A stretch of DNA of 54,615 nucleotides from Bilabrum cf. latius. Its lineage: Eukaryota. Of this stretch, positions 1 to 42,852 are shown one piece after another. The notes beneath the pieces were generated by a model, which worked only from the letters and a program-made list of their open reading frames with translations, was not told the origin of the DNA and searched no databases. Position 1 is the first letter of the stretch, and each line of letters opens with the position of its first letter. The stretch is from NCBI GenBank assembly GCA_965178125.1, contig CBCXTV010000007.1:1-54615 (forward strand), given 5' to 3'. A program made the position numbers and the translations under genes.

Positions 1-164
1 GATTCTTTGGGAACTGAGATTGAATGTCATAGCAACTATGAACGCTAAACTGGCAACTTTCCTAATCTCGAAATGACGACGGCGACAGGCTCATTTCGTC
101 ATTTCAGCATTGCGCGGATAACAATGGCAGAAATCTCATGGCGCAAATATATCGAATGGGACCA

Positions 165-505
165 CGGGCGGGCGGACTGGCACGCGAACAGGCAGGCGGT
201 AGGACGTGCAGGCGGGCAAATGGGCGGGCGTACGGGCGGGCGAGCGGACGAACGGGCGGGCGGGCAGACGGACGGCCGGGCGGGCGGATGCGCGGGCGGG
301 CACGCTGGCGCGCACACGAGCGAGCGGACGGGTGCGCGGGCGGGCGAACGGACGGGCGGGCGGACGGGCGGGCGGGCGAAGGCGGACGGGCGAACGGACG
401 GGCGCGCGGGCAGGGACGGGCCGGACGCGCGCCGGCGGCCGCGCGGGCGCGGCGAACGCGCAAACGAGCGCGGGCGGCCGAGCGGGCGCGGTCGGGCGGG
501 CGCGA
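165..505 (+). repeat. Degenerate (GGGC)n tract 1 (also ~14843-15185, ~29525-29865, ~44214-44555)
   Basis: Visible gggc/ggac tetramer repeats. Confidence 0.95.
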
Positions 506-881
506 GCGAGTGGGGCGAGAACCCCATGACGAACCCACAGCACGCAATTTCAAACGTCGACCGCACGCCTCGCAAGCAAGCTGTTACGACTGTCACCGCG
601 AAGACGGACCTATACACACAGTAAAACAACCACAACCGAGATCCATCCCTGCATTCCCTGTACATCCGCAGAGACGAACACACTATCGAGACGGAACGTG
701 CCACACGCACAGGACAGCGGGATGGGTAGCAGACTCCTGATCCCGTTCTGCCCGACCCGTAGGGCAGTGGGATGAGTAAGGACTCGGGTTCCATTCAGCC
801 CTGCATGTGGATGGAGCGACAACATATTGCTGAAAGACATGACTGCAATGTTGTTCATTGCATGCGAAAGGCATATTGTCG

Positions 882-2536
882 TCACTCCATCCACAACGGG
901 TCTTTGACCCACACGTATGTCTGGTTGCCAAGAATCCACGCGCGGTCCTCGGCGGACAACGCTTGGAGAGCCGTGTCCCAATGATTCGATGTGCACACCA
1001 TGCGTGTTCGATGAGTGAAAATTTCATACTCGTAGCAGTTCGTGGACGAACTTGCAAGCTGTACGCGGGCCGTCGACGCCTGAAAAAGCTTCCGCTCCGC
1101 ACAACGACCGCGGGACTGACCTCGTCGAACAAGATCAATCCGTCCCGTTCCAGTCAAAATCTTTTAGTGACGGCAACGTCTGGCCCGAACAATTCACTTC
1201 GAACACACGCATGCCTTCGGGCTGTAACGTCCGCGCGAAGGACGTTTTTCCGGTGCACGTTGGACCGTCCAACACTAGGAAGCGGTAACGCTGCATCAAA
1301 ACGCCGTACTGACGGAGCCAACCTTCGCAGACTCCTCCACGTGCGACGTTGCAACGCGAAGTGCGCATCAACCGCGCGGCGGTACGCTTCCACGCGCTCG
1401 CGCGCGCGCGCCCGGTCCATGAGACCAAGGTCGGATAGATACCGAGTCGCACCAATGCCCACGCGCTCAAGAAGCGAACGCGCCGACTCCGTCGACAACT
1501 TTTCGCTCTGGGCCAGCTGCATGACCCACAGCGCGTGCACGGGGTAATCGCGGAACGGCTGCCGGTCGGAATCAGTCCACAGATGACCGACTTTCTCGAC
1601 ACAGCAGTAAAAGTATGGAAGCCACTCGCCGACACCGTTGCGCGACCGGCCCTCGAAACGTTCGGGAGGTCGCACGTGCGGGGAAACGCCACGAAACGAC
1701 GTTGCCCCGTGACTGAGCACGCGAAGGAAACCGGGCACCGCACCTCGGAGAAAGCACACGTGAAAATGCACTTGAGCGCTCCGCTCTCGGTGAAAGGTCT
1801 GCGGACATATCTCCGCACAGATGGCCCGGTGCGTTGCTCCGATGAACTCCCCAAGCGCGTGCGCATAGAACACAAACTCGTGCCAGAGACGCACAACGTC
1901 GGCACGACGCATAAGCAAAAGCGCAGCGTCGTCAACGCACGCGCACGCACGCACCTCCGCATCCGCAAAAAGCCATTCTGCGGAAATGAAGGTCAGAAAA
2001 GTCCTACGACGCGCGCCACATGACTCCTTGTGAGGCATCAGGAGATCGGCGACTGGATCGCGGTCTATGTTGGCCGCCGTCAGGTACAACTGCGACACGG
2101 CCTTCTTCGCTTCCAAAGACAATGAAGCGAACTTGACACGAAATTCACGGAAAGACTTCGCACTCGTCATAGGGACGGCCCCTGCACCGCCACAGGCATC
2201 TCCAAACCTCTCTGGACGGCTCGCCATAGAAACAGACGTGTCCGACCGCTCACAAAAGTCCCGACGCTGCCTGATGGTCCGGTCCTGCATGCTCTGCACC
2301 GTCGGAATATCGCCCAAGGACGCCGCTAAAACCTTCCACTGGGCAAAAGGCTCCTGAGCGGAACTATCAGTTGAGACAGCAGCTCCAGAAGAAGAAGACG
2401 ACGTGGACGGAGTTTGCGCGACGTCGATATATGACGACGCCAGAACACCCTTCGCAGACATACGCCGGCGCTTCAACTTGGGCGACGACGCGACAGCCAC
2501 GTCATCCGACGACGGCGCGGATGACGATACATTCAT
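882..2536 (-). pseudogene. rep: CRESS-like Rep, copy 1, frameshifted in the helicase half (real or sequencing error)
   Basis: HUH part lies in ORF 1154..2728, Walker A in ORF 1135..1968 and motif C in ORF 882..1157. Relative to copies 3/4 there is a 7-nt deletion near 1327 and 1-nt deletions near 1150 and 1100. Confidence 0.8.
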
Positions 2537-2758
2537 CGTCACAGGGACAAGGGAAACACAATGAATGCGAGGGACACACGACACTAGGCCAAACAGCATG
2601 GGATTCCGACACCGTGCACAAGAACTCGAGCAACAACGCATCTGACCATGCCACACCATTCGACTTCTGCCGGGACCGTCGCAGTCCGTCACACGACCCT
2701 GCTCGGATGCCCCTGACAGCCGCCGCAAACGCCTCTGTGGGAACTAGGATATCCGCCA

Positions 2759-2867
2759 CAAGACCCGGGCACGCGTGCCCGAGGGGACCCTTCGGTCCCG
2801 CAAGAGAGACGGGGTCCCACCATGTCCTGACGTTTCATGAACGCCGCAAGACCCGGGCCCGGGTCTT
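2759..2867. promoter_or_regulatory. Palindrome cluster just upstream of rep
   Basis: 16-bp palindrome 2766-2781, hairpin gggacc/ggtccc 2784-2799, 20-bp palindrome 2848-2867, and direct repeat caagacccgggc at 2759 and 2847. Confidence 0.45.
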
Positions 2868-3301
2868 CTGTCCCACATGACACCTTCCACCATCATTGAC
2901 GTCCCACCTATCTGCCCCCTCCCACCATGACATCCCAATCATCCACCAATTACCCGCGTTAACCCGCCACACACCACCTGGGGTTGCATCCTTATCCCAA
3001 CACGTACCCACCCTTCTCTCTAAGAGTGCTTCTTTTCCCGAATGCCTTTGTCTCTCATGGTCAAAATCCGTGTGCAGCATACAACACATATGACTCCCCC
3101 TCGAACTCGTGGGACACCACGTTCCGGAACACAACTCCTCCACCAACACATGCATAACACTGCCGCCTAGTTTGCGCGGGAACCCTTGCAATGAGGTGAA
3201 GTGACGCAGGCGAAATCCAGAAAGGCCTTGTGGCGACCCCTCTTTTCGCGTCTTTTTGGCCCCCAAAGGGGGTGCCACGGCCCCCTTTTTTTACTCGGCA
3301 A

Positions 3302-3359
3302 AAAGCGGTGTCACCATTCTCGGCCCTTAAAAATATTAATATGGCGGCGGCACCGCTTT
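3302..3359. promoter_or_regulatory. Candidate rolling-circle origin: stem-loop with AT-rich loop (also 17995-18052, 32672-32729, 47362-47419)
   Basis: Arms aaagcggtg/caccgcttt enclose AAATATTAA (3331-3339), which fits the CRESS consensus NANTANTAN. It lies upstream of rep with GGTGTC-like repeats nearby. Confidence 0.4.
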
Positions 3360-3732
3360 GGGGACACCATGGTTTTTTTCGAGCAAAATGGCCTGTTTTC
3401 CTTGTAAACCCCTAAAAAACACAGGACGGCGGTGGCACCGCATTTTTTCGAGTGAAATGGCCTTCCCTTTGAGAACTGATTTTCGAAAAAAAAACTCCCT
3501 CTTTGATGGTTTCTGTGCTTTTATTCTTGGTCAATCGTGGTGTTTAAACTGTATGTTGAGAACTTTTTGCCGTATTTCGAGTTCACTTTGGGCATTGAAG
3601 ACTGACATTTTGTAGTTTTCCGCTTCTATGTTGGTTCTTTTTTCTGCGTCAGTTCGTGTGCGGTGTGTTTCGACTGATGGGAATGTGCGTGCTTCCTGCT
3701 GACAATACGGGTGCTCTCCGAGCGGCGCCCGT

Positions 3733-4224
3733 TCAACCCTTCTTGGCTTTTGCCTTCGCTGTACGGGCCCTGACAGCCGTCGCGGAGACTGCGTCTCCGG
3801 AGGAACCGGGTCGCGCCTGCGGAGGATTCTGTCGCATCTGCAGCACTGCGACGAGATCCTCGTCGTTCAACTGACGCGCCTTGCGCTTCAGTCTCGCCTT
3901 TCTTCTCTCTGCGTTTTTGAGGTTCTTCGCGACCTCCTTCTTCAGGTCGCGCGCTCTGTTTTTCTCCGCTCTCATGCGGTCGATGTACTCGAGCAAAGTC
4001 TCAGCGCTCTCTACCATTGCCGGAGGCTTTGGTCGGTCCGATGCCTCCGATTTTGCCGGCGCTGCTTCTACCTCTTGCGCTTCTGCTGTGACCATTACAG
4101 CTTCTTCGCCTTTGTCGATGACGGCATCGACGGACGTGGTCCCAGGCGCACCCCCCGGGGATCGCGGTGGCGAGACGGTTCCGTGATCGCTGTCGGCGTC
4201 GCTGGTGGCGTCCTGGGTCGCCAT
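3733..4224 (-). CDS. 163-aa hypothetical protein with acidic low-complexity N-terminus and basic coiled-coil C-terminus
   Basis: GCCATGG start; protein-like helical segment RAEKNRARDLKKEVAKNLKNAERRKARLKRKARQL; open in all four copies. Confidence 0.75.
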   Translation of the reverse strand: MATQDATSDADSDHGTVSPPRSPGGAPGTTSVDAVIDKGEEAVMVTAEAQEVEAAPAKSEASDRPKPPAMVESAETLLEYIDRMRAEKNRARDLKKEVAKNLKNAERRKARLKRKARQLNDEDLVAVLQMRQNPPQARPGSSGDAVSATAVRARTAKAKAKKG

Positions 4225-6007
4225 GGCGCCGGTGTGCTGGGCTTTGGGACTAACTCGGCTGACGCTGTCGCGGCCGCCGCGCGTCGGGTGGCAATAGGGG
4301 AACGCTCAGCCCGACGTCGGTATGTCATGCGATGCGCGCGTGGAATGTTATGCATTCGCGGGCCATGCAGCAGAGTTGCGAAAACAGCATCGATGTCGAC
4401 AATGCTACGATCCGGGAAGACACTTTGTAAATCATGGAACGATGGCCACTCATGCACATCCTCGGGCACTGTTTGCCACTGCAGTAAGCTGAGAACGCGT
4501 TTTGACACACCTACTTGCGAGCCGTCAAGCCCATTGCTGTGGAATGCTTGATCCCACGTGCGTCGCCGTATGACACGTTCGAATGCCGTCAGCACGGCGT
4601 GGAAAAGCGCATGTGGCCATCGCTCGCGCGGCAGCGCGCGCGCGATGCGGAGCTGATATTCATGTTCTATGGCGCGCTTGTAAATTGCGAAGACGTGCGT
4701 GTCGCAAGGCTGGAGCGCCCACGTCATTTTCGCGGGGATTAAATGGTAGTGGAAATTGAGTCGAGATGCCGTATGCCACACGGCGCGACCCAGGTGAGCT
4801 CGATACGTGTCCGCGCTAACAGTAAAATGATGCGTGTCTCGGAATGCATGGACGGCATCCGCGAGCACGCGCAGCGCGCGACACATTAATTTGGTGGTCA
4901 TCCACCCCTTTGCGCCTCGCAAGAGAAGCACATTCGGAGGGAGCGCGAGGCGGAGCGCGTCAAATTGCTCGCGACTCACAATGCGGTCTGAGAAGAGGAA
5001 TATGGTCGGCAAGTGCGGTTGGATGTCGCTGTTGTTGGCGATGCAGACGATTTGTGTGATCATGCTCCGCATCTCACGTTTCGGGGTCGGTTGACGCAAG
5101 CCTCCCGCTGCGCGAACTCGGCGTCGGGCCTCTTCCACAAGAAAACCTGCCTGTGAAACTGCCGTCAGCCGGATGCTCGTTTCGTCCATGTTCACGTGGA
5201 CCGGGCACTTGTCCGGCGGCGCGAAGGCCCGCAAGAAGTTGCACCATTTCCACACCGCACGTGCCTCGAAATTCGTTTGGGTCGGCTTTTTGCTCAAATT
5301 TGGGGGGCGTTTTCCGGGTCCAGAGTGTATTTGTTCTATATGTGAGGACCCCGAAACCAGGGCCGCTATATGGCCCCGTTTTGGGTTTCCTTCGTGAAAC
5401 GTCGGACGTGTTTTTGCCACTGTCCGGTGGCCTTTAGGCGTCGTCGATCCACACATTCTGCATCGAGTCGAGGCACGGCTCCGAGCGACACCTGCCAGCG
5501 TCGCCGCCAGCGTCGGCACCACTGTCGGATGCTTTGTCTTCTTCTAGATGCCTCGGGTCCTGCTCCTGCGGATCGGTACCCGTGAGCCTGCGTAATCTCG
5601 AGAAAAACGTTCGTCGTCGGCGCGAGTGTATTGGCGAAGTTCTGCTCGTGAACCCACCTGTGCAGATTATGTTCTCGCAAGAACCGCGATGTCATCGTGG
5701 CAGCTTGTAGACGCTCTGGCGTCCATGGACGTTGTTGCTCTCGGAGCACACCGTCTTCCGTAAGAGTAGCGTGCCATGCACGAAGATTTGCGATCGCGTC
5801 GTCAAGAGTCGGAACCGGTGCATTCCGCCACTTCTGACGCAGATAAGCTTCTGCGGTGACGACGTCGACGATGACCGCCAAAAAGCGGGCGTGCCCCTCC
5901 AGTTGTGCTATGCGAGCTGTTTGCCGCCGGTGTTGCTCTCTGGCACGACGAACTGCTTGCTGAAGCGTCCGCATCGCGTTCGCGAGCGACGCGATTGTCG
6001 CTTCCAT
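4095..6007 (-). CDS. pogo/Tigger-family (DDE_1) DD35D transposase; two exons (6007-5432, 5264-4095), ~581 aa predicted
   Basis: Catalytic motifs VNMDETS, KGWMT, SADTYRAH and LIPAKMTWALQPCD, with 35 residues between D2 and D3. The upstream ORF ends in a CENP-B-HTH-like WCRRWRRRW. A phase-0 AAG|GC…GAG|G intron (5431-5265) joins RRRLK to ARAVWKW in frame. Start context GCCATGG. Confidence 0.88.
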
Positions 6008-6434
6008 GGCCCGAGTATGGTGGTACGATTCGATCGTACACAGCGAAGGAGGATGTGTCTCGAGTCGAGAGCAATGCGGGGCGAGCCACTGATGGGAAGT
6101 TTCATGTCAAGGCCCATTTCCGACAGTGCGCTCGATCCTGAGCCCCCTTTCGAACATGCGCCCGTGCATTGGTGCATGGTATCGGTGTGTCGCGTGCACT
6201 TTTGTGCTGTCGTTGCTCGGCCGGTCGTTCGTGTGCAAATGTCCGCGCGCCCCTGCCGTGCGCGGTAGACTTGCGGGTGATTTCACTTTCCCGGAATTGA
6301 TTGCCGGAGCGATTATGCCTGATCGATTCTGCGAGCATGCTGAGATGGAAATGAAGACGGCGACGGGCTCGTTTCATCATTTCGATATGGTGGAGATGGG
6401 CACAACGAAACTGTCGTTTCGCCAACGTCACCAG

Positions 6435-6792
6435 TGGGCGGGCGGGCGGGCAAGCGGGTGGGCTGGCGGGCGGTCGGGCGTGCGGGCGGGCGGGCGTGCG
6501 GGCGGGCGGGCGGGCGGGTGGGCGGGCGGGCGGGCGGGCGGGCGCGCGGGCGGGCGGGCGGGCGGGCGGGCGGGCGGGCGCTCGGGTGGGCGGGCGGGCG
6601 CCCGGACGGGCGGGCGGTCGCCTGCGCGGGCGGGCGGGCGGACGAGCGGGCGGACGGGCGGGCGGGTGGGCGGGCGCGGGCGGGCGGGCGGGCGGGCCCT
6701 TGCGGGTGGGCGGTCGGACGCTGGTGGGCGGGCGGGCCGGCGTGCGCGGGCGCGCGGGCGCTGGCGGGCGGGCGGGCGGGTCCGGGCGGGCG
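6435..6792 (+). repeat. (GGGC)n tract 2, the purest (also ~21129-21487, ~35810-36172, ~50498-50847)
   Basis: Long runs of gggc; repeat number varies between copies. Confidence 0.97.
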
Positions 6793-7019
6793 AGCACGTT
6801 TACCGCCAAACATAAGGAACCCTTGATTGCGCAACGGAGATACTGACGACATGAGACCACTTTATACGCGGGACGGCTGAAGGCTCGTTTCCCGGCTGAA
6901 GATGGAGCCGTGATGGTTTCTTCCTCGGCTGAAAATCTCGAAAGCATGTGCATTGACTTACAAGCCTTGGCATCCCAGATCGTGTCACACCTTACACACG
7001 ACCCACACGGTTCCGGATG

Positions 7020-8480
7020 CGCCCTGGGGTGGTCGGGGCTGCGGGACGGGAGACCGGTGGGAGGGAGTGAGAAGTATGTGGATGGGGGGTGGCTTGGTCG
7101 TGCGCGTGGGTGTGTCGGGGCGGGTGGGTGGGGATGAACGTGGTGGGACGAGGAAAGGGTTAGGACGGATGGTCGGGCGTGTGGTTGCCTGTGGATGATG
7201 TCGGAGCGCGTCACTTGCGCTCGATCCAAGTCGGTTTCGCGCGCCTGAGTTGCGTAGCCGTGCTGGCGACGCACCGTCCGGTGAGAGCTTGTTCCGTCCT
7301 CGCGCCTTGTTGCCGTCGACGGCTGCCTCGGCGGCAAAGGTGCCGGCCGGCGACTCCAGTGCGCGTGCAACCCGTTCGCGTTCCGCAGTCGTGGTCCAAT
7401 GCCGTCACTCGCAGCGTATCGGAGCGCGACCTCAATATGCTAGCGTGCTTGTCGCGAGCTCGCACACACACATTCGCTGGCCGTGTCATGGTTTGCGCAG
7501 CATGGTCGGCTGTTACGCAAATCGGTTCTTTGTGCGGTCTTCGTCGCACTGACATGACAACGAATGCACCCTGACTACTTGCGGTTCTCGACATAACCCG
7601 ACAGTATTCATGCTGCGACCGGAACATGCGAGACCTAAAAATAACCGACAAGCCGGATGATTGTGGAGCGCCGGGTTCGGTTCTCGTGCGGTCGCTTATC
7701 CTATAGTGGTATGGAAGATTTGAGCGTTTTGCATCACCGGGCTTTTCCCGTGCCTGGTGCAAATCGGCTGCTCGAAACGACTCTGGGCTGGCGGTGGGGA
7801 GGCCCGGATAGTGGCGGGATGATGCTGGTGGGGGGGGGTGTCGATGGAGTGTGCGTGGGGTCAGTCGGGGCGGGAGGCGGGGCTGGTGATGGTAAGGGGG
7901 GGAGATGGTGGAGCGGACAAATCGCGCGGATGGTCACCTGCACAAAATGTCGGAACGCATGAGATGTGACTGGTCCATTACGCGTTCGCATTCCCATGTT
8001 ATCTAGGTCTGCTGATTGCGCAGCATCATGCGGGACAAGAGTCTCTCTGAAGGCCTCGCCGTCGTCGACGGTTGTCACTGCGGCAGCGGCACCGGCTGCC
8101 GGCTCCAGCGCGCGTACGCCACGTTCGCGTCCAGCGGCTGCCGCTGGATGCTGTTCCGCGCGGCGTACACGAAGTCAGCCTTTGTATGCTAGCGTGCTAC
8201 CCGGCAACCCTCACACGTGCGCACGCGTTCGCATCGTGCGGACACGGTTGGCCGCAAGATAGTCCGGCCTTCGTCGAGCCACTGTTGCTTCGACATGAAA
8301 ACGATGCCATTTTGGAGTGTGGCGCGGACTGGCGTGACGTCATTGTCGAATGCTATCATCGCAACACTCATGTGCCGAAATTGTTTTGATAGGTTCCTGA
8401 ATTGTGGAGTCCCCTGTTTCGCCTCCGTCGGGTTGCGCACCCAGTAGCGGTACCCGAAGCTCTGGCCGATCTGTCTCAAA
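7020..8480. repeat. Old internal tandem duplication (~750-bp period) of the 3' end of the GT-like gene
   Basis: tatgctagcgtgct at 7436 and 8185. Aligned translations: YAARNSIQRQPLDANVAYARWSRQPVPLP vs YAASDGIGPRLRNANGLHAHWSRRPAPLP, and YRYWVRNPT vs YHYRISDRT (YHYWIRDPT in copy 4). Confidence 0.8.
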
Positions 8481-10177
8481 CGGCGCTGCTCGCGCTTGGT
8501 GCGCGGCGCCCCTGACGAGTCGGCACCGGCGGTTTCGACGGTGGGATCGGCGGCAGAAGGCTCGTTCCGACCCGACCGTCCGCCGCCTTTTCCCTTGCGG
8601 CCGCGGCCTTTCGTCGTGGACGACTGCGCCTCGCCTGTGATGTGATGGACGCCCGCCCTCCCCCCGTTTTTTTTCAGCGCTATAGCACGGACGTTTCAAC
8701 TCCTTAGCCCCAAAAGAAAAAGGAAAATCGGCCACCTTCGTCGCGCGTCGGCGGCCGCAGCGCCCGCGGATCGGCGAACCAAGCGTCCGCGTCCGCTGGG
8801 CCTACGGCCCACGCTGGCATGGGCTCCGGGAACGCCCAATGGCTGAGCCATCGGTGCGCGGCCGGCGTAGGCGCGTCGGCCAGCGTCGCGAGACGTTGGC
8901 ACTTGCCCTTCTTCTCGAAGCTCGCGAGGAACTTCTGCCGTTCGCGGGGGTCTTGACTGCGGCGCGTTCCTGGGCACACCCAACGTTCTGTCCACGCGGA
9001 CGGGCGCACCCAACCTGGTCCATGTGCAGTGTCGCAATGGGACACATGCTCCACGCAGGCGCCGATTCCGGGCACGACGTAGCACGCTCGGGCCGCTCGG
9101 CCCTTGGTTCCAAGGAACCATTTCAAGTCCAGGTCCCAGTGCCCTCGGGTTCCCCCGAGTTCATCGGGTTTCTTCATGGACTCCATCATCGTCGTCGCGC
9201 CGCTCTTCGTCACCATGATGAACTGCGATCCGAAGCCAAACTGTGCCTCATCGCGCACGTTCTGTCCCGGCTGGCCGCACGCCCACCCGCTCCAAACGAT
9301 ATCACCGCAGCTCGCACGATGCGCTTGCGTTGCTATGGCGCACACATCTTCTAGAACTTGTGGGCACGCGATGTGGCGTTCCGTCGGCCGCAACTGGATC
9401 GCGACGAAGTGGCCCGCCTTCGATATGGGTGCGACAACTTCGAGAAATGGAAAGAAGATGCGTACTCATGCACGTGCACGTCGCGTCAGTTCGTCGGCGA
9501 CTGTGCGATCATCACAGGTGGCGAAAGGCTCATGCCTGTCCTTTCTTCACGCTATCATGCCTACTGACCCTTCCCCCTTCAAAAAATACGTGCTCATCCG
9601 CCTGTTTCAGCCGTCGGTCCGGCTGCGGTTGCTGAGCCACCGCAGGGGGCTGGAGGCTCCTGCCTGCGTCGCGCATCGCCTGCAGCTCCAGCGCCACGCT
9701 TCCGCGTGGTCTCGGCGCCGGCGCCGCGTCCGGCTCGAAGCGAAAATCCTCTTCGAAGCACAAAAAGAGGACGTCATCGGGCCAGCGCTCGTCGAGCGCC
9801 AGCGGGATGAAGTAGTCCTGAGCATACGACATGGGGTCACTGGCATGTACTATTGCGCGTATACGCCACCGCTGGCACGACTGTTGTCGGCGACAATGGC
9901 ACATCACGTCAAATGCTGATACCAAACACGATCCACACTGTGATGACTCCATGCTTTCCTAATGCGTGCTACCATCCTCCCACCAGCTTCGCACTGTCGT
10001 CGACCGATCGCATCCTGGTTGCAACGCGGTCGTCCGCGCGATGCAAACCAGTGGTTGCAGCGGCAGTAGCTTCTCCGCCAGGTATGTCCCGGCGTCGTTT
10101 GGGTCGGCGCCGAAGTGCGTCACAATCAGCGCCTGGAATAAGAAATGGTCCGATTGCTCAAAAAGCCAATGAGACAT
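8075..10177 (-). CDS. Multi-exon gene, possibly GT-A/GT25-like glycosyltransferase; predicted exons 9817-9602, 9417-8736, 8634-8423, 8179-8075; 5' exon(s) uncertain
   Basis: Phase-compatible AG|GC or AG|GT donors and AG|G acceptors link separate ORF pieces. Motifs FLCFEEDFRF, GDIVWSGW, GSQFIMVTKSGA and HWDLDL resemble the order of GT25 motifs (judged by eye). Confidence 0.5.
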
Positions 10178-10386
10178 GTGACGAGCTTATGCACGGGACG
10201 GCGGTAGGCTCGTTTCCCGGCATGTAACGGGGCGGCAAGGGCTCGTTCCCCGGTTCACAATTGCGAAAGTTCGTGCATTGACCGACATGTCCTGTCCCGT
10301 GAAATCACGCCACACATCACAGCTCCTCGAAATGGCGTAAGACCCAATGCTCGGCACAAAAGAATGCGTGTCATGTTACGACTGCT

Positions 10387-10761
10387 TCATGGGAGCACCA
10401 CGACTGGCCGACCGTTCACCATGTGGACGAACCTCTGCGGCTCGAAGTCCGCATAGGTACTTCTGTTGCGCGTGAGATGACCGATCTCATCACGCGCTGA
10501 CAATCCGGCATCGACAAGAGTGTCATCGAAATCGATGACGAGACTATCGCTCGCGCTGGCTCTGCTTCCTGCGGCGCGACTTCCGGCCGGTGTCGGCGCT
10601 CCGCGACGCTCCTGCAGCGTGGCCTCCCCGCTGCGCTGGAGCTCCGTCGCGTGCGCTGCGTGGACCGGCAGCCATGTGCCGCCGATGCCTGCGTCGGGCT
10701 GACGCTTCTTCCTCTTCGGCATCGGTGTGCGAAGACGCGCGTGGGCCCGGACGGAATCCAT
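10387..10761 (-). CDS. Small hypothetical protein (124 aa) with NLS-like PKRKKR; also at 25079..25453 and 39769..40143
   Basis: Open in three copies and co-oriented with the other genes; could instead be a 5' exon of the GT-like gene. Confidence 0.45.
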   Translation of the reverse strand: MDSVRAHARLRTPMPKRKKRQPDAGIGGTWLPVHAAHATELQRSGEATLQERRGAPTPAGSRAAGSRASASDSLVIDFDDTLVDAGLSARDEIGHLTRNRSTYADFEPQRFVHMVNGRPVVVLP

Positions 10762-11140
10762 CCCAGTAAAGAAATGACGCGATAAGCGCGGGCGGACATG
10801 GATTCCGCAGCGTTCACATACGTCAGCACATGTTATGTCACGACATGTATATGTGCAATCTGCATCTTACGCATACACCAGCATTTCCGACATGTTTCAT
10901 GCTGTGAAACAAAACCAATCGCCAAATACCCGCAACAAATGAAAATTGGAAATTTCAACGCTCATATGCATAAAATGACAATGTGCATCATCCTCGAGTT
11001 GAACAGCTTGCCCGCTGCAGGAGTCGTGAAGGCGCCGACGGCATCCACGCCATCGCACGCGCCCGCGCGCCGGACCCCTCTGGACATGACGCCGAACCAC
11101 GGCGAAAGGCTCGTTTAGTTCGACGCGATCACTCACCGCA

Positions 11141-11530
11141 TCAGCCGCCGCGGCGCTGCCACACAGGCGCCGGGGGTGAGCGCGATCGACCGCTGGTCGA
11201 GTCCGCGCTGCGGCGCGCCGCGCGCCGCGCCTCGCCAGCGCGGCGCTCGTCGTTCCACAACTCGCCGCTCGGGGGGACGGTGCCATCTCCGGCACGTCCA
11301 GCCACGAAGGGAAGAAACTCCGCGCCGTTGATGCGCGCATGCAACGTGAGCACACCCGGCGGGCGCTCGACGTTAACGCGCCACGTTGTCCGCACCACCA
11401 GTCTGGTGCTTCCGTCGTCCTGCCGCTCACCGAGACAAGTCACGGAATCGACAGTAAGGGCACCACTCTGGGTGCCGACTTGCCGCTGCAATAGGGCTGT
11501 GACCCAACGCGCGTGGGTATCGCTCGCCAT
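11141..11530 (-). CDS. Small hypothetical protein (129 aa from MASDTH), beta-rich with Arg/Ser tail; also at 25832..26221, frameshifted at ~40522..40913
   Basis: ATGG start, protein-like composition and an RSRSP tail; first ORF inside the putative element end. Confidence 0.45.
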   Translation of the reverse strand: MASDTHARWVTALLQRQVGTQSGALTVDSVTCLGERQDDGSTRLVVRTTWRVNVERPPGVLTLHARINGAEFLPFVAGRAGDGTVPPSGELWNDERRAGEARRAARRSADSTSGRSRSPPAPVWQRRGG

Positions 11531-12624
11531 GTGGGCGACAACGCATGCGCACAAACGGGATTTTCCTGAAAGCCATGTATGAGCGCGCACGTAAAAACGC
11601 GTGAATGCGCGGAACCGAATTTCTACACGCTCGCCTGCATCAAGCATCCAAAATTTCCTCATACGAACTTCGAACCGTGTTTTACGTCGCTCGCAAAATG
11701 AAACGCGACAGCACCATATCAGCATGTCCCCTAATCAATGCTTCGCCCCGCGGTTTCAGAACCTGCCATCCATGCGCATGAATCGGAGACCAAACTTACA
11801 CAGCAAAGAAACAAGGGGGTTAGAAAACAGCGGGAGAAAGCTCAAAACGGCGAAAAATGCGGGACGCACAAACGATGGGAAGGGGGGGGCGAACAAAAGA
11901 AATATCCGTAGGAACACGTCATGTGGTAAAAAAAAAAAAAAATCACTCACAATCCCAAGGGGCCTACATAGGCTCATACATGTTGACACACTGTGCAACA
12001 GCATGATTTTGTCAACCATTATATGACGACATCTGCGAGTTGAGGGCAAAATCGTTTATGCGTTGGATGCAACATTCATGATCACACCGCCGAATATTCC
12101 GAAAATTGCCCTCGTTGTCAGCGACTCTCGGTGGAACGCACGCGTCACCGATGGCCGACTCGTAACAAGAAAATATGAGACATGCTTGCGATCACGTCGG
12201 CGTTTGCTTGGGCTGTGTGCGTACGGAGATTCCCAAACTAGGCTCACGTTAGCCCGAACGACATGATTACGGTTGCAATGACCCAGCGCTATACACGTGC
12301 AACACGTCCTGGGATGTTTCATCACACTGTCGCATAATCAGGCCCATCATGCGAGCCAAAGACACCCCAGGCCTCAAGAATGAGACGGCGAGGACCTGTG
12401 CGACGAGCAAAAGGACCGAGATTTGGGAAAAGAGCGGGGAGGGGTGGGAAGGGGGATAGGCACGAAAAAAAGGGGATCTCCTTCAGGGACGGACAGGGGA
12501 GGAGCGAGACGGGGGATGGGAAAGGGGGACCCGAATTGGGGCCGCAGGAAGGTGACGAATCCGCGGCCCCGACTTCAGGACCGCGGGGCTGGTTTTGAGA
12601 CCGTTTCCGGCCCAGGAAACTGGA

Positions 12625-12667
12625 CACGAAAAAGTGAAGCCCGACAGTCGGGCTTCACTTTTTCGTG
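12625..12667. repeat. Perfect 43-bp palindrome; putative TIR-TIR (circle) junction
   Basis: cacgaaaaagtgaagcccgac-a-gtcgggcttcactttttcgtg: 21-bp arms around a 1-nt centre, followed by ~40 bp of imperfect inverted similarity. The palindrome is certain; its role is inferred. Confidence 0.85.
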
Positions 12668-13024
12668 CTCGCTTTTCGGGGGCGAAAACAGCACCGAAAT
12701 CGAGGCCGTTTTTTGGCGCATGTGGCAGAAATCGAGCAAGCAATGTACACATGATTCCACCTTTGGAAGGACTTACCACCTTCAGTGGCTTCCGTCATAA
12801 TGTTTCAAGTCATAATCAACGAGATCCAGGACGCGACGCCACAACGCATGTGGCCACAACCGACACTTGGCCCCAAACAAACTGTGCTCGAACACCCTCA
12901 AGACCAAACGGCATCCAACTGACCGGAACACGAAATACACGGACCGCTATTTAAGGATCGTCCTGCATAACGAGACAAGCAAACTTACATGACGGACATG
13001 AAACATATCTCGATGCGTCTAACT

Positions 13025-13288
13025 GGCGGAGGGGCGGGCGGACAGGCGAACGGGCGAACAGACGACTGACCGGATGGGCAGCCGGGCGGGCTGGCGGGTG
13101 AGCGGCAGCGGGTGGGCGGGCGAGCGGCCGGATGTACGCGGACAAACGGGCGGGCGATCGAGCGCGGGCGGGCGCGCGGGCGGGCGGGCGGACGGGCGCG
13201 GGCGGGCGGACACGACGGGCGGGCGGGCGCAGGCGGGCAGGCGGGGCGCGGGCGGTCGGGCAGGCGGGCGGGCAGGCAGGCGGGCGGG
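13025..13288 (+). repeat. Degenerate (GGGC)n tract 3 (also ~27711-27975, ~42400-42663)
   Basis: Visible gggc/ggca repeats ~360 bp inside the palindromic junction. Confidence 0.95.
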
Positions 13289-13478
13289 ACGAAATACGAA
13301 AACGGGAAAAAACACGAACGCGCACGGGCTTTTCAAAACACGGCCACAGCCCGAGCCTCGACTGTGATCGTCCGCGCGGGGAGTCCCTGGCGCCGTTCAC
13401 GCCGCCCACTTGAAACGCGCCACGACGGCGGGCGCTGAGGCGACCACGGAGCGGCTCCCCGAACGGCGACAGGCTCGT

Positions 13479-14189
13479 TTACGGGCAAGTGTCGTGCGCC
13501 CCGTCCTCACACCCTGACGAGTCTGTGTCCATCACGGTCGTGATGGGATCCTGTAGTTCCATCGGATGTGTGCACTCCTCAAAATAACCACGCAAATGCT
13601 CCGCTGACTCAGCAAAGACAAGGCCCTCCACCATCTTCTGATTGCCTTGCCCCAGAACAAAAGAGCGAGTGGAGTCTGCGACACAATGCCCAGCATCCAC
13701 GATTCGAACGTTAAGACACACATGAACGTCGACAACGCCCTTCTGGCACATGTTCGACAAGTATGTCTTCGCAGACGTGAAGTCGGAACAGCCGCACCGT
13801 CGGCAAACGATGCGGCCTCGACCACACAAGGTGCGATGCTTCAAATCCGTCAACAATCTATACAATCGTCTGTGCGCCCGCTGCTGACCAGACACTGTAG
13901 TAAGCTGGTCATACGCAACCATCTCATCGCACATGCCGCACATCAAGCTATCCAGACGTAAAAAACAATCCGCAATGTCAGGAATGTGCATACCAGCCGG
14001 CGCCAACACGACTTCGCCAGGCTTTGCGAAAACTAACTTGGCACACCAGTCCCGCTTCTCAGTTGCCACAAGCACGACACCATCCCGGACGTCAAGCTTC
14101 ACTTCCATCACACGCGAATCCGCCTGGCACATCGAGTTCCGCGAGCGTTTCTGCGTCTCTGTCGCCGCTGCATCCGAACTGCAAGCCAT
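13479..14189 (-). CDS. Cys-rich hypothetical protein (~236 aa), possibly zinc-binding
   Basis: Likely start MACSSD in a GCCATGG context; CxxC pairs CGMC and CRRCGC; the only indel between copies is 3 nt and in frame. Confidence 0.65.
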   Translation of the reverse strand: MACSSDAAATETQKRSRNSMCQADSRVMEVKLDVRDGVVLVATEKRDWCAKLVFAKPGEVVLAPAGMHIPDIADCFLRLDSLMCGMCDEMVAYDQLTTVSGQQRAHRRLYRLLTDLKHRTLCGRGRIVCRRCGCSDFTSAKTYLSNMCQKGVVDVHVCLNVRIVDAGHCVADSTRSFVLGQGNQKMVEGLVFAESAEHLRGYFEECTHPMELQDPITTVMDTDSSGCEDGAHDTCP

Positions 14190-15560
14190 GGCACGGGCCG
14201 GACTGGCGAAGAAGGAAACGCGACACGACAGGATGCGAGGTTGGGCCTCCGAAACAGGCAATCTGCCAGCCAAAACGACTGTGCCGTCATGGTCCATTCG
14301 AGTGTAAGGCGTAATCGCATATCACTCAATACCCTTGCAATCACCCTGCATCAACGCATCACGCCTACAATTTTCGTACTGGTTGCGGTCCGATGATGCC
14401 CGACACGCAAACGCTGCGTGCCACAGAGCAATGGATCAATCGCTTGCAGATTCGTCTTCAGCCGACAGCGATGTGAGGGCGAAACTACCCATGCGAAGCC
14501 TCATGTAAAACACAAGCTTTCTACAATGTGATCCGTCATACATACAGGCTCGAACACGCGCCAGTACGCTCCTCCATGGAATCGATGAATAGCGCACTCT
14601 CGTCCGCAGTCTTCGCCCGGCGGACGATCGGCATGCGGATGCATTTGCACATTTATAATGCACAGAGATCCCTGCGCTGATTCTTTGGGAACTGAGATTG
14701 AATGTCATAGCAACTATGAACGCTAAACTGGCAACTTTCCTAATCTCGAAATGACGACGGCGACAGGCTCATTTCGTCATTTCAGCATTGCGCGGATAAC
14801 AATGGCAGAAATCTCATGGCGCAAATATATCGAATGGGACCACGGGCGGGCGGACTGGCACGCGAACAGGCAGGCGGCTAGGACGTGCAGGCGGGCAAAT
14901 GGGCGGGCGTACGGGCGGGCGAGCGGACGAACGGGCGGGCGGGCAGACGGACGGCCGGGCGGGCGGATGCGCGGGCGGGCACGCTGGCGCGCACACGAGC
15001 GAGCGGACGGGTGCGCGGGCGGGCGAACGGACGGGCGGGCGGACGGGCGGGCGGGCGAAGGCGGGACGGGCGAACGGACGGGCGCGCGGGCAGGGACGGG
15101 CGGACGCGCGCCGGCGGCCGCGCGGGCGCGGCGAACGCGCAAACGAGCGCGGGCGGCCGAGCGGGCGCGGTCGGGCGGGCGCGAGCGAGTGGGGCGAGAA
15201 CCCCATGACGAACCCACAGCACGCAATTTCAAACGTCGACCGCACGCCTCGCAAGCAAGCTGTTACGACTGTCACCGCGAAGACGGACCTATACACACAG
15301 TAAAACAACCACAACCGAGATCCATCCCTGCATTCCCTGTACATCCGCAGAGACGAACACACTATCGAGACGGAACGTGCCACACGCACAAGACAGCGGG
15401 GATGGGTAGCAGACTCCTGATCCGTTCTGCCCGACCCGTAGGGCAGTGGGATGAGTAAGGACTCGGGTTCCCATTCAGCCCTGCATGTGGATGGAGCGAC
15501 AACATATTGCTGAAGACATGACTGCAATGTTGTTCATTGCATGCGAAAGGCATATTGTCG

Positions 15561-17228
15561 TCACTCCATCCACAACGGGTCTTTGACCCACACGTATGTC
15601 TGGTTGCCAAGAATCCACGCGCGGTCCTCGGCGGACAACGCTTGGAGAGCCGTGTCCCAATGATTCGATGTGCACACCATGCGTGTTCGATGAGTGAAAA
15701 TTTCATACTCGTAGCAGTTCGTGGACGAACTTGCAAGCTGTACGCGGGCCGTCGACGCCTGAAAAAGCTTCCGCTCCGCCACAACGACCGCGGGACTGAC
15801 CTCGTCGAACAAGATCAATCCGTCCCGTTCCCAGTCAAAATCTTTTAGTGACGGCAACGTCTGGCCCGAAACAATTCACTTCGAACACACGCATGCCTTC
15901 GGGCTGTAACGTCCGCGCGAAGGACGTTTTTCCGGTGCACGTTGGACCGTCCAACACTAGGGAAGCGGTAACGCTGCATCAAAACGCCGTATTGACGGAG
16001 CCAACCTTCGACGTCCGGCAGACTCCTCCACGTGCGACGTTGCAACGCGAAGTGCGCATCAACCGCGCGGCGGTACGCTTCCACGCGCTCGCGCGCGCGC
16101 GCCCGGTCCATGAGACCAAGGGTCGGATAGATACCGAGTCGCACCAATGCCCACGCGCTCAAGAAGCGAACGCGCCGACTCCGTCGACAACTTTTCGCTC
16201 TGGGCCAGCTGCATGACCCACAGCGCGTGCACGGGGTAATCGCGGAACGGCTGCCGGTCGGAATCAGTCCACAGATGACCGACTTTCTCGACACAGCAGT
16301 AAAAGTATGGAAGCCACTCGCCGACACCGTTGCGCGACCGGCCCTCGAAACGTTCGGGAGGTCGCACGTGCGGGGAAACGCCACGAAACGACGTTGCCCC
16401 GTGACTGAGCACGCGAAGGAAACCGGGCACCGCACCTCGGAGAAAGCACACGTGAAAATGCACTTGAGCGCTCCCGCTCTCGGTGAAAGGTCTGCGGACA
16501 TATCTCCGCACAGATGGCCCGGTGCGTTGCTCCGATGAACTCCCCAAGCGCGTGCGCATAGAACACCAAACGTCGTGCCAGAGACGCACAACGTCGGCAC
16601 GACGCATAAGCAAAAGCGCAGCGTCGTCAACGCACGCGCACGGCACGCACCTCCGCATCCGCAAAAAGCCATTCTGCGGAAATGAAGGTCAGAAAAGTCC
16701 TACGACGCGCGCCACATGACTCCTTGTGAGGCATCAGGAGATCGGCGACTGGATCGCGGTCTATGTTGGCCGCCGTCAGGTACAACTGCGACACGGCCTT
16801 CTTCGCTTCCAAAGACAATGAAGCGAACTTGACACGAAATTCACGGAAAGACTTCGCACTCGTCAGGGACGGCCCCTGCACCGCCACAGGCATCTCCAAA
16901 CCTCTCTGGACGGCTCGCATAGAAACAGACGTGTCCGACCGCTCAAAAAGTCCCGACGCTGCCTGATGGTCCGGTCCTGCATGCTCTGCACCGTCGGAAT
17001 ATCGCCCAAGGACGCCGCTAAAACCTTCCACTGGGCAAAAGGCTCCTGAGCGGAACTATCAGTTGAGACAGCAGCTCCAGAAGAAGAAGACGACGTGGAC
17101 GGAGTTTGCGCGACGTCGATATATGACGACGCCAGAACACCCTTCGCAGACATACGCCGGCGCTTCAACTTGGGCGACGACGCGACAGCCACGTCATCCG
17201 ACGACGGCGCGGATGACGATACATTCAT
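15561..17228 (-). pseudogene. rep: CRESS-like Rep, copy 2, multiple frameshifts
   Basis: Rep motifs are split over ORFs 15561..15857, 15845..16672, 16059..16664 and 16627..17031 by small indels. Confidence 0.8.
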
Positions 17229-20701: not shown

Positions 20702-22767
20702 GGCCCGAGTATGGTGGTACGATTCGATCGTACACAGCGAAGGAGGATGTGTCTCGAGTCGAGAGCAATGCGGGGCGAGCCACTGATGGGAAGTTTCATG
20801 TCAAGGCCCATTTCCGACAGTGCGCTCGATCCTGAGCCCCCTTTCGAACATGCGCCCGTGCATTGGTGCATGGTATCGGTGTGTCGCGTGCACTTTTGTG
20901 CTGTCGTTGCTCGGCCGGTCGTTCGTGTGCAAATGTCCGCGCGCCCCTGCCGTGCGCGGTAGACTTGCGGGTGATTTCACTTTCCCGGAATTGATTGCCG
21001 GAGCGATTATGCCTGATCGATTCTGCGAGCATGCTGAGATGGAAATGAAGACGGCGACGGGCTCGTTTCATCATTTCGATATGGTGGAGATGGGCACAAC
21101 GAAACTGTCGTTTCGCCAACGTCACCAGTGGGCGGGCGGGCGGGCAAGCGGGTGGGCTGGCGGGCGGTCGGGCGTGCGGGCGGGCGGGCGTGCGGGCGGG
21201 CGGGCGGGCGGGTGGGCGGGCGGGCGGGCGGGCGGGCGCGCGGGCGGGCGGGCGGGCGGGCGGGCGGGCGGGCGCTCGGGTGGGCGGGCGGGCGCCCGGA
21301 CGGGCGGGCGGTCGCCTGCGCGGGCGGGCGGGCGGACGAGCGGGCGGACGGGCGGGCGGGTGGGCGGGCGCGGGCGGGCGGGCGGGCGGGTCCTTGCGGG
21401 TGGGCGGTCGGACGCTGGTGGGCGGGCGGGCCGGCGTGCGCGGGCGCGCGGGCGCTGGCGGGCGGGCGGGCGGGTCCGGGCGGGCGAGCACGTTTACCGC
21501 CAAACATAACGAACCCTTGATTGCGCAACGGAGATACTGACGACATGAGACCACTTTATACGCGGGACGGCTGAAGGCTCGTTTCCCGGCTGAAGATGGA
21601 GCCGTGATGGTTTCTTCCTCGGCTGAAAATCTCGAAAGCATGTGCATTGACTTACAAGCCTTGGCATCCCAGATCGTGTCACACCTTACACACGACCCAC
21701 ACGGTTCCGGATGCGCCCTGGGGTGGTCGGGGCTGCGGGACGGGAGACCGGTGGGAGGGAGTGAGAAGTATGTGGATGGGGGGTGGCTTGGTCGTGCGCG
21801 TGGGTGTGTCGGGGCGGGTGGGTGGGGATGAACGTGGTGGGACGAGGAAAGGGTTAGGACGGATGGTCGGGCGTGTGGTTGCCTGTGGATGATGTCGGAG
21901 CGCGTCACTTGCGCTCGATCCAAGTCGGTTTCGCGCGCCTGAGTTGCGTAGCCGTGCTGGCGACGCACCGTCCGGTGAGCTTGTTCCGTCCTCGCGCCTT
22001 GTTGCCGTCGACGGCTGCCTCGGCGGCAAAGGTGCCGGCCGGCGACTCCAGTGCGCGTGCAACCCGTTCGCGTTCCGCAGTCGTGGTCCAATGCCGTCAC
22101 TCGCAGCGTATCGGAGCGCGACCTCAATATGCTAGCGTGCTTGTCGCGAGCTCGCACACACACATTCGCTGGCCGTGTCATGGTTTGCGCAGCATGGTCG
22201 GCTGTTACGCAAATCGGTTCTTTGTGCGGTCTTCGTCGCACTGACATGACAACGAATGCACCCTGACTACTTGCGGTTCTCGACATAACCCGACAGTATT
22301 CATGCTGCGACCGGAACATGCGAGACCTAAAAATAACCGACAAGCCGGATGATTGTGGAGCGCCGGGTTCGGTTCTCGTGCGGTCGCTTATCCTATAGTG
22401 GTATGGAAGATTTGAGCGTTTTGCATCACCGGGCTTTTCCCGTGCCTGGTGCAAATCGGCTGCTCGAAACGACTCTGGGCTGGCGGTGGGGAGGCCCGGA
22501 TAGTGGCGGGATGATGCTGGTGGGGGGGGTGTCGATGGAGTGTGCGTGGGGTCAGTCGGGGCGGGAGGCGGGGCTGGTGATGGTAAGGGGGGGGAGATGG
22601 TGGAGCGGACAAATCGCGCGGATGGTCACCTGCACAAAATGTCGGAACGCATGAGATGTGACTGGTCCATTACGCGTTCGCATTTCCCATGTTATCTAGG
22701 TCTGCTGATTGCGCAGCATCATGCGGGACAAGAGTCTCTCTGAAGGCCTCGCCGTCGTCGACGGTTG

Positions 22768-27353: not shown

Positions 27354-28163
27354 CTCGCTTTTCGGGGGCGAAAACAGCACCGAAATCGAGGCCGTTTTTT
27401 GGCGCATGTGGCAGAAATCGAGCAAGCAATGTACACATGATTCCACCTTTGGAAGGACTTACCACCTTCAGTGGCTTCCGTCATAATGTTTCAAGTCATA
27501 ATCAACGAGATCCAGGACGCGACGCCACAACGCATGTGGCCACAACCGACACTTGGCCCCAAACAAACTGTGCTCGAACACCCTCAAGACCAAACGGCAT
27601 CCAACTGACCGGAACACGAAATACACGGACCGCTATTTAAGGATCGTCCTGCATAACGAGACAAGCAAACTTACATGACGGACATGAAACATATCTCGAT
27701 GCGTCTAACTGGCGGACGGGCGGGCGGACAGGCGAACGGGCGAACAGACGACTGACCGGATGGGCAGCCGGGCGGGCTGGCGGGTGAGCGGCAGCGGGTG
27801 GGCGGGCGAGCGGCCGGATGTACGCGGACAAACGGGCGGGCGATCGAGCGCGGGCGGGCGCGCGGGCGGGCGGGCGGACGGGCGCGGGCGGGCGGACACG
27901 ACGGGCGGGCGGGCGCAGGCGGGCAGGCGGGGCGCGGGCGGTCGGGCAGGCGGGCGGGCAGGCAGGCGGGCGGGACGAAATACGAAAACGGGAAAAACAC
28001 GAACGCGCACGGGCTTTTCAAAACACGGCCACAGCCCGAGCCTCGACTGTGATCGTCCGCGCGGGGAGTCCCTGGCGCCGTTCACGCCGCCCACTTGAAA
28101 CGCGCCACGACGGCGGGCGCTGAGGCGACCACGGAGCGGCTCCCCGAACGGCGACAGGCTCGT

Positions 28164-42041: not shown

Positions 42042-42852
42042 CTCGCTTTTCGGGGGCGAAAACAGCACCGAAATCGAGGCCGTTTTTTGGCGCACGTGGC
42101 AGAAATCGAGCAAGCAATGTACACATGATTCCACCTTTGGAAGGACTTACCACCTTCAGTGGCTTCCGTCATAATGTTTCAAGTCATAATCAACGAGATC
42201 CAGGACGCGACGCCACAAACGCATGTGGCCACAACCGACACTTGGCCCCAAACAAACTGTGCTCGAACACCCTCAAGACCAAACGGCATCCAACTGACCG
42301 GAACACGAAATACACGGACCGCTATTTAAGGATCGTCCTGCATAACGAGACAAGCAAACTTACATGACGGACATGAAACATATCTCGATGCGTCTAACTG
42401 GCGGACGGGCGGGCGGACAGGCGAACGGGCGAACAGACGACTGACCGGATGGGCAGCCGGGCGGGCTGGCGGGTGAGCGGCAGCGGGTGGGCGGGCGAGC
42501 GGCCGGATGTACGCGGACAAACGGGCGGGCGATCGAGCGCGGGCGGGCGCGCGGGCGGGCGGGCGGACGGGCGCGGGCGGGCGGACACGACGGGCGGGCG
42601 GGCGCAGGCGGGCAGGCGGGGCGCGGGCGGTCGGGCAGGCGGGCGGGCAGGCAGGCGGGCGGGACGAAATACGAAAACGGGAAAAACACGAACGCGCACG
42701 GGCTTTTCAAAACACGGCCACAGCCCGAGCCTCGACTGTGATCGTCCGCGCGGGGAGTCCCTGGCGCCGTTCACGCCGCCCACTTGAAACGCGCCACGAC
42801 GGCGGGCGCTGAGGCGACCACGGAGCGGCTCCCCGAACGGCGACAGGCTCGT

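Follow-up and report, generated by a model that had tools for sequence, protein, structure and literature searches.

The origin stem-loops of CRESS-type replicons have a conserved centre carried by stems that differ between replicons, and are read strand-specifically by Rep proteins, which combine an HUH nuclease with an SF3 helicase; in nanoviruses they are co-oriented with the genes, one for each segment. The Rep of adeno-associated virus (AAV) reads a structured hairpin plus tetranucleotide repeats. In the REP/RAYT and IS200/IS605 systems, dispersed imperfect hairpins are read on one strand by an HUH enzyme. Integron attC sites, located just behind open reading frames (ORFs), are likewise co-oriented and are recognised as single strands by their structure; they contain extrahelical bases, and their sequence is little conserved. 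Here a family of short hairpins is described, which is contained in a stretch of DNA from Bilabrum cf. latius (contig CBCXTV010000007.1, positions 1 to 54,615), in the following called the window. The window is made up of tandem copies of an element encoding an HUH-SF3 Rep. The hairpins exist, are strand-specific and covary; that they could be the sites at which this Rep recognises single-stranded DNA is the reading favoured here, tentatively and short of an even balance of probability.

A strand-specific, covarying hairpin family

The 54.6-kb window corresponds to about 3.7 head-to-tail copies of one unit, spaced 14,673-14,694 nt apart. Copies 1 to 3 are almost identical, while copy 4 diverges, with differences of up to about 6%. 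Since the copies are in tandem, the independent sample of hairpins amounts to 12 sites, not to about 40. Seventeen public sequencing runs, from ten studies, contain the stretch or part of it, none of them recorded as RNA (24 runs listed). Alignment of four runs to the window revealed a very abundant and diverse repeat family: in run X1 alone, 51,922 contigs match the window at 80-100% likeness. From these four runs, 40 of about 1426 differences and 15 of 558 joints were listed.

The sequence CGGCNNNNGGCTCGTT occurs 22 times in the window, always on the plus strand, against an expectation of 0.04, and none of 100 shuffles reached this number. A pattern which takes no account of the stems, [CTG]GGC N3-4 GGCTC N T N, matches the plus strand of the window 40 times (11 per unit) and the minus strand never; each of the 40 matches is flanked by 4-10 bp of complementarity. 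The covariance model R1 (36 nt), of the kind that a previous sequence-only reading of this DNA had called for, was run unfiltered over the window with a threshold of E < 1e-3. It detected 43 matches, all on the minus strand, which define 12 hairpins per unit, spaced 34-4017 nt along it; the best plus-strand match in the window scores 10 bits. The ten hairpins of the sequence-only reading were all found where it had placed them. Its claim that they are co-oriented stood, while its count of about ten per unit had to be raised to 12, by adding the sites at 9637-9672 and 714-749.

On the minus strand, the hairpin is composed of a stem, an AA bulge, a C-G and a G-C pair, a bulged A, a G-C and a C-G pair, and a 5-nt tip, in which a C is followed by four mostly pyrimidine bases. 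Within the core, positions 1-14, 2-13, 3-11 and 4-10 are paired, leaving the 5-nt tip, a 1-nt bulge and a 2-nt bulge. The conserved part, previously taken for an open loop of 16 nt, is thus a bulged mini-helix. Its outermost pair, 1-14, covaries (CG 10, GC 3, UA 1, UG 1); its innermost pair, C-G in 11 sites, has become U-A in the site h714.

Pairing was scored on an alignment of 16 distinct hairpin versions, against the structure that we propose. Complementary bases fill 81.7% of the alignment cells (57.7% in shuffles), for a covariation score of 0.605 (0.179 in shuffles); none of 500 shuffles scored as high, and controls in which the structure was slid along the alignment gave 0.13-0.25. The five stem pairs closest to the core show 3-4 pair types each. 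The earlier suggestion that structure is conserved while stem sequence is not was borne out by these values. Sequences flanking the hairpins are dissimilar, except for two paralogous pairs (h6874/h10199 and h80/h6358), and no flanking motif common to the hairpins was found.

The strand on which the hairpins fold was evaluated in two ways. When folded as minus strand, 11 hairpins out of 11 adopt an identical minimum-energy architecture, while the plus strand gives mixed folds. In addition, the 99 pair cells of the 11 unit-1 hairpins comprise 93 Watson-Crick pairs, 4 G.T and 2 T.T on the minus strand, and no A.C. Both the prediction that stem mismatches would be G-T or T-T on the minus strand and the prediction that this strand folds agree with these results. 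The same results bear on a possible role in duplex DNA, in which the hairpins would be cruciform-prone binding sites for the DDE_1 transposase of the unit or for a zinc-finger-like ORF. The sites are indeed inverted repeats, and the unit contains a DDE_1-type ORF under some purifying selection. However, the asymmetry between G.T and A.C, together with an asymmetric core confined to one strand, is unexpected for duplex or cruciform DNA; stems of 4-6 bp around a 16-nt centre extrude poorly; and neither target-site duplications nor termini resembling terminal inverted repeats were seen by eye. This is considered the least probable of the explanations. The analysis establishes a recognition signal of the protein type, located on the single-stranded sense strand, as DNA or as RNA.

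The specificity of the structure was evaluated on 1.3 Mb of unrelated DNA, made up of 174 loci selected for containing the core motif. None of the 246 exact core motifs found there has 5/5 flanking pairs and seven have 4/5, while all six exact core motifs of unit 1 have at least 4/5. The R1 maximum in 291 kb of these control loci is 24.7 bits, to be compared with 25.7-40.7 bits for 40 window matches. Since control motifs have no stems, the stems belong to the Rep element, and are not a by-product of the core motif. A search of Rfam with positions 1-15000, at E up to 1, returned only MIR1858; this match scores 26.2 bits, where the gathering score is 137, and falls on the 12.6-kb palindrome described below. 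Pieces of 106 nt and 76 nt, searched at E up to 10, yielded either nothing or scores of 14.6 and 13 bits, for gathering scores of 35 and 100. The earlier statement that the hairpin is not a recognised motif is in line with these searches. In viral contigs, the single-hairpin pattern gave only single chance matches, among the matches listed, and no earlier description of the hairpin was found in literature judged from titles and abstracts.

In metagenomes, a search for two core motifs within 40 nt returned 54 loci (L121-L174), all of them GC-rich, stemless tandem repeats, which shows that repeats inflate the matches to this pattern; these loci were used solely as controls. Among candidate identities, a relic of the dinoflagellate spliced leader, domain 5 of group II introns and the K-turn were considered and dropped; a frameshift site was rejected with GGGAAAC present in only 2 of 12 hairpins. 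A miniature inverted-repeat transposable element was also rejected: here the interior is fixed and the arms vary, the reverse of such elements, and flanks are dissimilar outside the two paralogous pairs.

A distant homologue provides evidence at the protein level. P0008 is 50% identical to the ORF G5, and continues into a block homologous to the ORF P0004 (E 2e-13). It keeps NEPSA, the in-frame reading of the hairpin core, within an otherwise unconserved stretch, and its flanking codons (GP...VGP, GR...ADP in the window) permit 9 consecutive pairs, as do only 2 of 480 control positions. This suggests, from protein sequence, that core and pairing may persist while the stem sequence changes. The sequence-only reading would have been contradicted by homologues keeping the loop but losing the stems; P0008 speaks in part against such a loss, as a protein only. 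P0004 alone retrieved no homologue in a protein search. When 153 proteins were scanned for hairpin-compatible coding sites, 8 were found, against 1-4 in controls, a result which is unconvincing beyond P0008.

These data also allow evaluation of the possibility that the hairpins are functionless relics, derived from a tiny palindromic insertion or a duplicated sequence and multiplied passively as the array was amplified. An 83%-identical duplicate does contain two of the sites, h6874 and h10199, and h80 is evidently a paralogue of h6358; the tandem copies, four in number, do not count as independent; copy 4 is without two sites and has one stem weakened; and a core position is polymorphic in the runs. 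On the other hand, flanks are dissimilar beyond the two paralogous pairs, and an insertion that had been copied would preserve its stems and vary in the middle, the opposite of the observed pattern. The stems differ almost everywhere, yet 93 of 99 cells are Watson-Crick; the strand bias is 43 to 0; and a hairpin is apparently kept in a homologue at 50% protein identity. Relics are accordingly regarded as very unlikely.

The Rep protein as candidate reader

The Rep gene (882-2728, minus strand; P0001) codes for an HUH nuclease and an SF3 helicase. Its N-terminal ORF (1154-2728, minus strand) contains the motifs FLTF, HFHVCF and YFYCCVEK. The helicase part, read by eye, is present in the window, where it is frame-shifted; the closest relative, P0003 (44% identical, E 1.8e-73), adds a Walker-A helicase. 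Most run copies differ from the window by small indels (1149, 2169, 2253, 13897 and others, among the differences listed), and for this reason the frameshifts of the window Rep are copy-specific or assembly errors. In particular, most run copies carry an extra C at 1149 which, by our reading, restores the Rep frame there.

An exhaustive search collected 1224 Rep relatives at E up to 1e-3, 256 of them at E up to 1e-30. Within the family, the HUH and Walker residues (T, HxH, Y..K and GK) are invariant in 60 relatives; a KRRRL-like basic motif is located near the N-terminus, and the N-terminal extension is long and variable. No Pfam family matches the protein. A sequence search of PDB returned one chain, poliovirus 2C, at E 0.39, and a profile search returned nothing. 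A structural model built from 60 sequences reached a mean predicted local distance difference test score of 84.6, while an alignment of two sequences had given an unusable 36.8. The best structural match of the model is AAV2 Rep68 (E 1.7e-7 over 497 columns), and the Vientovirus Rep, of CRESS type, is matched at E 1.2e-6; further fold matches include SV40 T antigen, B19 NS1 and E1. In the Atlas, the nearest named clusters are Cressdnaviricota Reps, with a score of 0.95, to be taken as a lead only. Because of the fold matches and the invariant residues, in a protein that no Pfam family matches, the modelled protein is classified as an HUH-SF3 Rep of an uncatalogued branch. Searches with the Rep protein against viral contigs, and with the Rep alignment against metagenome and genome contigs, retrieved no relative accompanied by its DNA; the degenerate pattern FDE...RKLFQA gave no viral match and six chance bacterial matches.

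The canonical nonanucleotide origin, ANTATTAC, has no match on either strand of the window, which leaves the hairpin family as the main repeated candidate for the cognate structure of the Rep. The reading in which the Rep recognises the hairpins is favoured on four grounds: an HUH-SF3 Rep is encoded, the canonical origin is absent, the hairpins are placed without regard to gene structure, and their centre is conserved on variable stems, as in Rep origins. According to this reading, the hairpin would be a cis-acting signal, read by a protein while the sense (minus) strand is single-stranded. The protein would recognise the fixed bulged mini-helix and the pyrimidine-rich 5-nt tip, placed on a helix of free sequence. 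We infer that the single strand may be DNA and that the reader may be the HUH-SF3 Rep of the element itself, in which case the hairpins would represent the replicon's non-canonical counterpart of the CRESS origin stem-loop and of the Rep-binding hairpins of parvoviruses. The Rep might bind, nick and rejoin at the hairpins, and nicking or release at these sites is part of the same proposal. Since the hairpins are co-oriented and repeated, both within and between units, a round of rolling-circle copying begun at one hairpin could terminate at another further on.

An extension of the Rep reading would see in the array a cassette-like, multipartite Rep replicon of a eukaryote, with hairpin-to-hairpin intervals (0.1-4 kb, mostly one gene) released by the Rep as circles of single-stranded DNA. 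The tandem array, chromosomal or episomal, would then be the master from which a nanovirus-like set of segments is derived. This extension is considered unlikely; if true, it would be a eukaryotic analogue of integron cassettes, in which an HUH enzyme reads a new bulged-hairpin code instead of the nonanucleotide.

A signal acting on single-stranded DNA may also be something other than a Rep nick site, for example a priming site for the complementary strand or a nucleation site for a coat or single-stranded-DNA-binding protein, such as the product of the Cys-rich 272-aa ORF. A strand-specific signal dispersed along the whole unit would suit such a role; several proteins of the element are without a Pfam family and are candidate readers; and the ssoA origins of rolling-circle plasmids, with their conserved loop, offer a parallel to a fixed core on variable stems. 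Against this, the Cys-rich ORF has no recognisable fold or family, nor any match in the Atlas, and 14.7 kb is, to our knowledge, far above the size of Rep-encoding single-stranded-DNA virions. Priming or coating is judged distinctly improbable.

The twelve sites, their genes and the RNA alternative

The minus strand, on which all hairpins fold, is the sense strand of every coding-like ORF: Rep, the DDE_1 transposase, a coiled-coil ORF and five others (G1-G5). In coding-like ORFs, the GC content of second codon positions is lower than that of first and third positions. The hairpins themselves are found in intergenic sequences, overlapping stop codons, within ORFs and, probably, in an intron. 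The presence of hairpins in every context fits a signal which is independent of gene structure; the earlier claim that intergenic DNA, an intron and exons all contain them is plausible, on gene models that are unverified.

Two sites have the longest stems. The first, h80 (70-105; 37.3 bits with R1, as all scores given below), has a 10-bp outer stem with perfect 10-nt arms and the core AA-TG-A-GC-CTGTC-GC-CG; its other copies are at 14748-14783, 29430-29465 and 44119-44154. Its paralogue h6358 (6348-6383; 37.4 bits) has a 10-bp stem with one T.T and is repeated at 21042-21077, 35723-35758 and 50411-50446; in copy 4 it has a core change and scores 33.9 bits. Both lie near (GGGC)n arrays, G-rich on the plus strand, three of which were called by Tandem Repeats Finder (TRF), all with a period of 4: array A (222-502, 67 copies) is located between h714 and h80, array B (6436-6792, 87 copies) between h6874 and h6358, and array C (13147-13288, 35 copies) just downstream, in the sense direction, of h13464. 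Each array is preceded, in the sense direction, by a hairpin, and A and B are then followed by the long-stem h80 and h6358, respectively. The distance from h80 to the TRF-called array A is 117 nt; by eye, the G-rich repeat begins near 130. Run contigs were observed which join array to array, skipping 6.4 or 12.8 kb; these joints may reflect recombination or an assembly artefact. A TATAAA-like box was seen by eye at about 14655-14665 (minus strand). In the sense direction it follows h80 at a distance of about 100 nt, and it precedes the ATG of the Cys-rich ORF by about 350 nt.

Two sites are associated with Rep. h714 (714-749; 21.9 bits, E 3.7e-4) starts 133 nt past the Rep stop, and owes its innermost pair to a U-A replacing C-G. 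It is repeated at 30073-30108 and 44762-44797, while the copy-2 version, at 15394-15429, reaches only 12 bits. h2341 (2331-2366; 32.5 bits), with the variant core CA-GG-A-GC, lies within the N-terminal Rep ORF, where it is read in frame as QEPFA, in a region that is variable across the Rep family; the other copies are at 17023-17058, 31699-31734 and 46388-46423.

Site h6874 (6864-6899; 40.4 bits), with copies at 21558-21593, 36243-36278 and 50918-50953, is contained within an 83%-identical internal duplicate of 10170-10221. The corresponding h10199 (10189-10224; 39.7 bits; copies at 24881-24916, 39571-39606 and 54241-54276) is the first member of an adjacent pair, completed by h10233 (10223-10257; 25.7 bits). 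The latter has a 4-nt tip, and is repeated at 24917-24949 and 39607-39639; in copy 4 (54277-54310) the tip is 5 nt and the score is 31.0 bits.

Three sites may be intronic or internal. The core of h8551 (8541-8576; 34.6 bits; copies at 23234-23269, 37923-37958 and 52599-52634) reads NEPSA in the frame of P0004. A GT-AG intron drawn by eye from 8741 to 8520 joins G5 in frame to the conserved block of P0004, and on this model h8551 is probably intronic. h9519 (9509-9544; 36.1 bits; variant core CA-TG-A-GC...GC-CA) overlaps the stop of the ORF at 9530-9952 and is repeated at 24201-24236 and 38891-38926. h9647 (9637-9672; 31.9 bits; variant core CA-GG-A-GC...GC-CC) is repeated at 24329-24364 and 39019-39054. 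Both are missing from copy 4, in which an unrelated segment of 892 nt (53011-53902) takes the place of unit positions 8954-9850, displacing the two hairpins along with most of G4 and G5; the boundaries of this segment fall away from hairpins.

The last two sites are close to stop codons. h11100 (11090-11125; 31.3 bits; copies at 25781-25816 and 40471-40506) starts 16 nt past the stop of the ORF at 11141-11725, and its minus-strand fold has a z-score of -3.04. h13464 (13454-13489; 36.8 bits; copies at 28139-28174 and 42828-42863) overlaps the TAA stop of the Cys-rich 272-aa ORF (13479-14297).

The location of several sites near stops bears on the main rival explanation, nearly as good as the Rep reading and given only slightly less credence: hairpins folding in sense transcripts and bound by an RNA-binding protein. 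Their roles might then include 3'-end formation or stability, as with the stem-loops of histone mRNAs, cleavage of long array transcripts to yield individual messages, and RNA transport or packaging. Every coding-like ORF is on the hairpin strand; the four wobble cells are all G.T on the sense strand, with no A.C; and adenines bulging from a short helix are a usual feature of RNAs recognised by proteins. For six of nine coding-like ORFs a hairpin is close to the stop, at distances of -14, -10, +16, +128, +130 and +133 nt, while we estimate that about 0.9 of 12 hairpins would be so placed by chance; the three spacers of about 130 nt show no homology to one another. However, the two sites with the longest stems, h80 and h6358, sit between a (GGGC)n array and the next gene and not behind an ORF, h2341 is inside the Rep ORF, and h8551, h9519 and h9647 look intronic or internal, where a 3'-end signal would truncate messages. 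In addition, the G5 stop from which the distance of 128 nt is measured is probably intronic on the by-eye GT-AG model, and Rfam contains no matching family.

Several observations weigh against the hairpins as Rep sites. Their co-orientation with all genes and the G.T-only wobbles fit RNA at least equally well, and the distances from stops point the same way. None of the 15 joints listed, of 558 in the four runs, falls at a hairpin; the core is unlike the CRESS nonanucleotide; the window copy of Rep is frame-shifted; and we know of no Rep replicon with twelve origin-like sites per unit. Other points concern any functional reading: copy 4 has lost h9519 and h9647 and carries stem-weakening changes, position 13472, in the core of h13464, is a frequent variant in three runs, and the four copies are not independent. 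The Rep reading is kept as the preferred one for the four grounds given above.

Should the hairpins be Rep sites, they would represent a new origin code for a large, unannotated HUH-SF3 branch (1224 relatives, no Pfam model), and would indicate that such a Rep can run a 14.7-kb multigene element with many internal sites. Should they be RNA elements, they would form a new class of gene-linked hairpins, comparable to histone 3' stem-loops. In either case, the 36-nt model is a specific probe for related elements and their boundaries in marine protist genomes, and a basis for compensatory-mutant tests.

Other features of the unit are reported here. The DDE_1 (pogo-like) transposase ORF (4095-6007, minus strand) is matched by Pfam at 22.8 bits, against a cut-off of 22. 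Between copies it shows 18 synonymous and 13 non-synonymous changes, compared with 4:28 and 10:23 in the other frames, which reveals some purifying selection. The ORF may belong to the element proper or to a transposon nested in it. The coiled-coil ORF is located upstream of it and overlaps it in another frame. A large imperfect palindrome (12603-12689), whose 43-nt arms are 81% complementary, contains a near-perfect core of 20 bp (12625-12667) and is situated between array C and the ORF at 11141-11725; the MIR1858 near-match, the sole one from Rfam, is located there and is noise. The palindrome could be an alternative origin- or terminator-like structure. In runs X5, X8 and X9, derived from other organisms, contigs join 12947 back to 2654, which implies a unit or circle of 10.3 kb without Rep and the Cys-rich ORF. 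In run X9, the depth at 3609-3645 is about 5,900, compared with about 30 on either side, and the loose ends are AT-rich; a short match to an abundant sequence of another organism is the probable cause.

Comparison with known systems

The origin stem-loops of CRESS replicons, nanoviruses and satellites share with the present family a strand-specific hairpin with a conserved centre, and here too an HUH-SF3 Rep is encoded nearby. The window, however, does not contain NANTATTAC, and the conserved centre is a bulged mini-helix instead of an open loop. Moreover, twelve hairpins are present in each 14.7-kb unit, some overlapping ORFs, and the units form a tandem array, not a small circle. The likeness to AAV and other parvoviruses consists in the structural match to AAV2 Rep68, the best obtained, and in the tetranucleotide arrays, (GGGC)n, which adjoin hairpins. 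Terminal T-shaped palindromes are not found here, the hairpins being internal and numerous, and no likeness in sequence is claimed.

Integron attC sites differ in that the conserved part is at the ends of the stem, while here it is the centre, in a context that looks eukaryotic. The ORFs scanned contained no tyrosine recombinase family, in an analysis that did not extend to the attC core consensus. The enzymes of RAYT and IS200/IS605 are single-domain bacterial Y1 transposases, whereas here an SF3 helicase is present and the hairpins are inside the element. A Helitron, whose RepHel protein combines a two-tyrosine HUH domain with a helicase of Pif1 type, was rejected as identity of the element: the fold matches of the helicase part are to SF3 proteins (AAV Rep, SV40 T antigen, E1), and only one tyrosine is invariant.

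Among RNA signals, the 3' stem-loop of histone mRNAs (RF00032) is similarly a short conserved hairpin of the sense strand, located soon after stops in a tandem gene cluster. It differs in architecture, no Rfam match was obtained here, and several of the present sites are not behind an ORF. Each of the known systems compared therefore fails at least one defining feature among those tested or inspected, while in kind the present family is a hairpin signal that belongs either to an HUH replicon or to the transcripts of that replicon.

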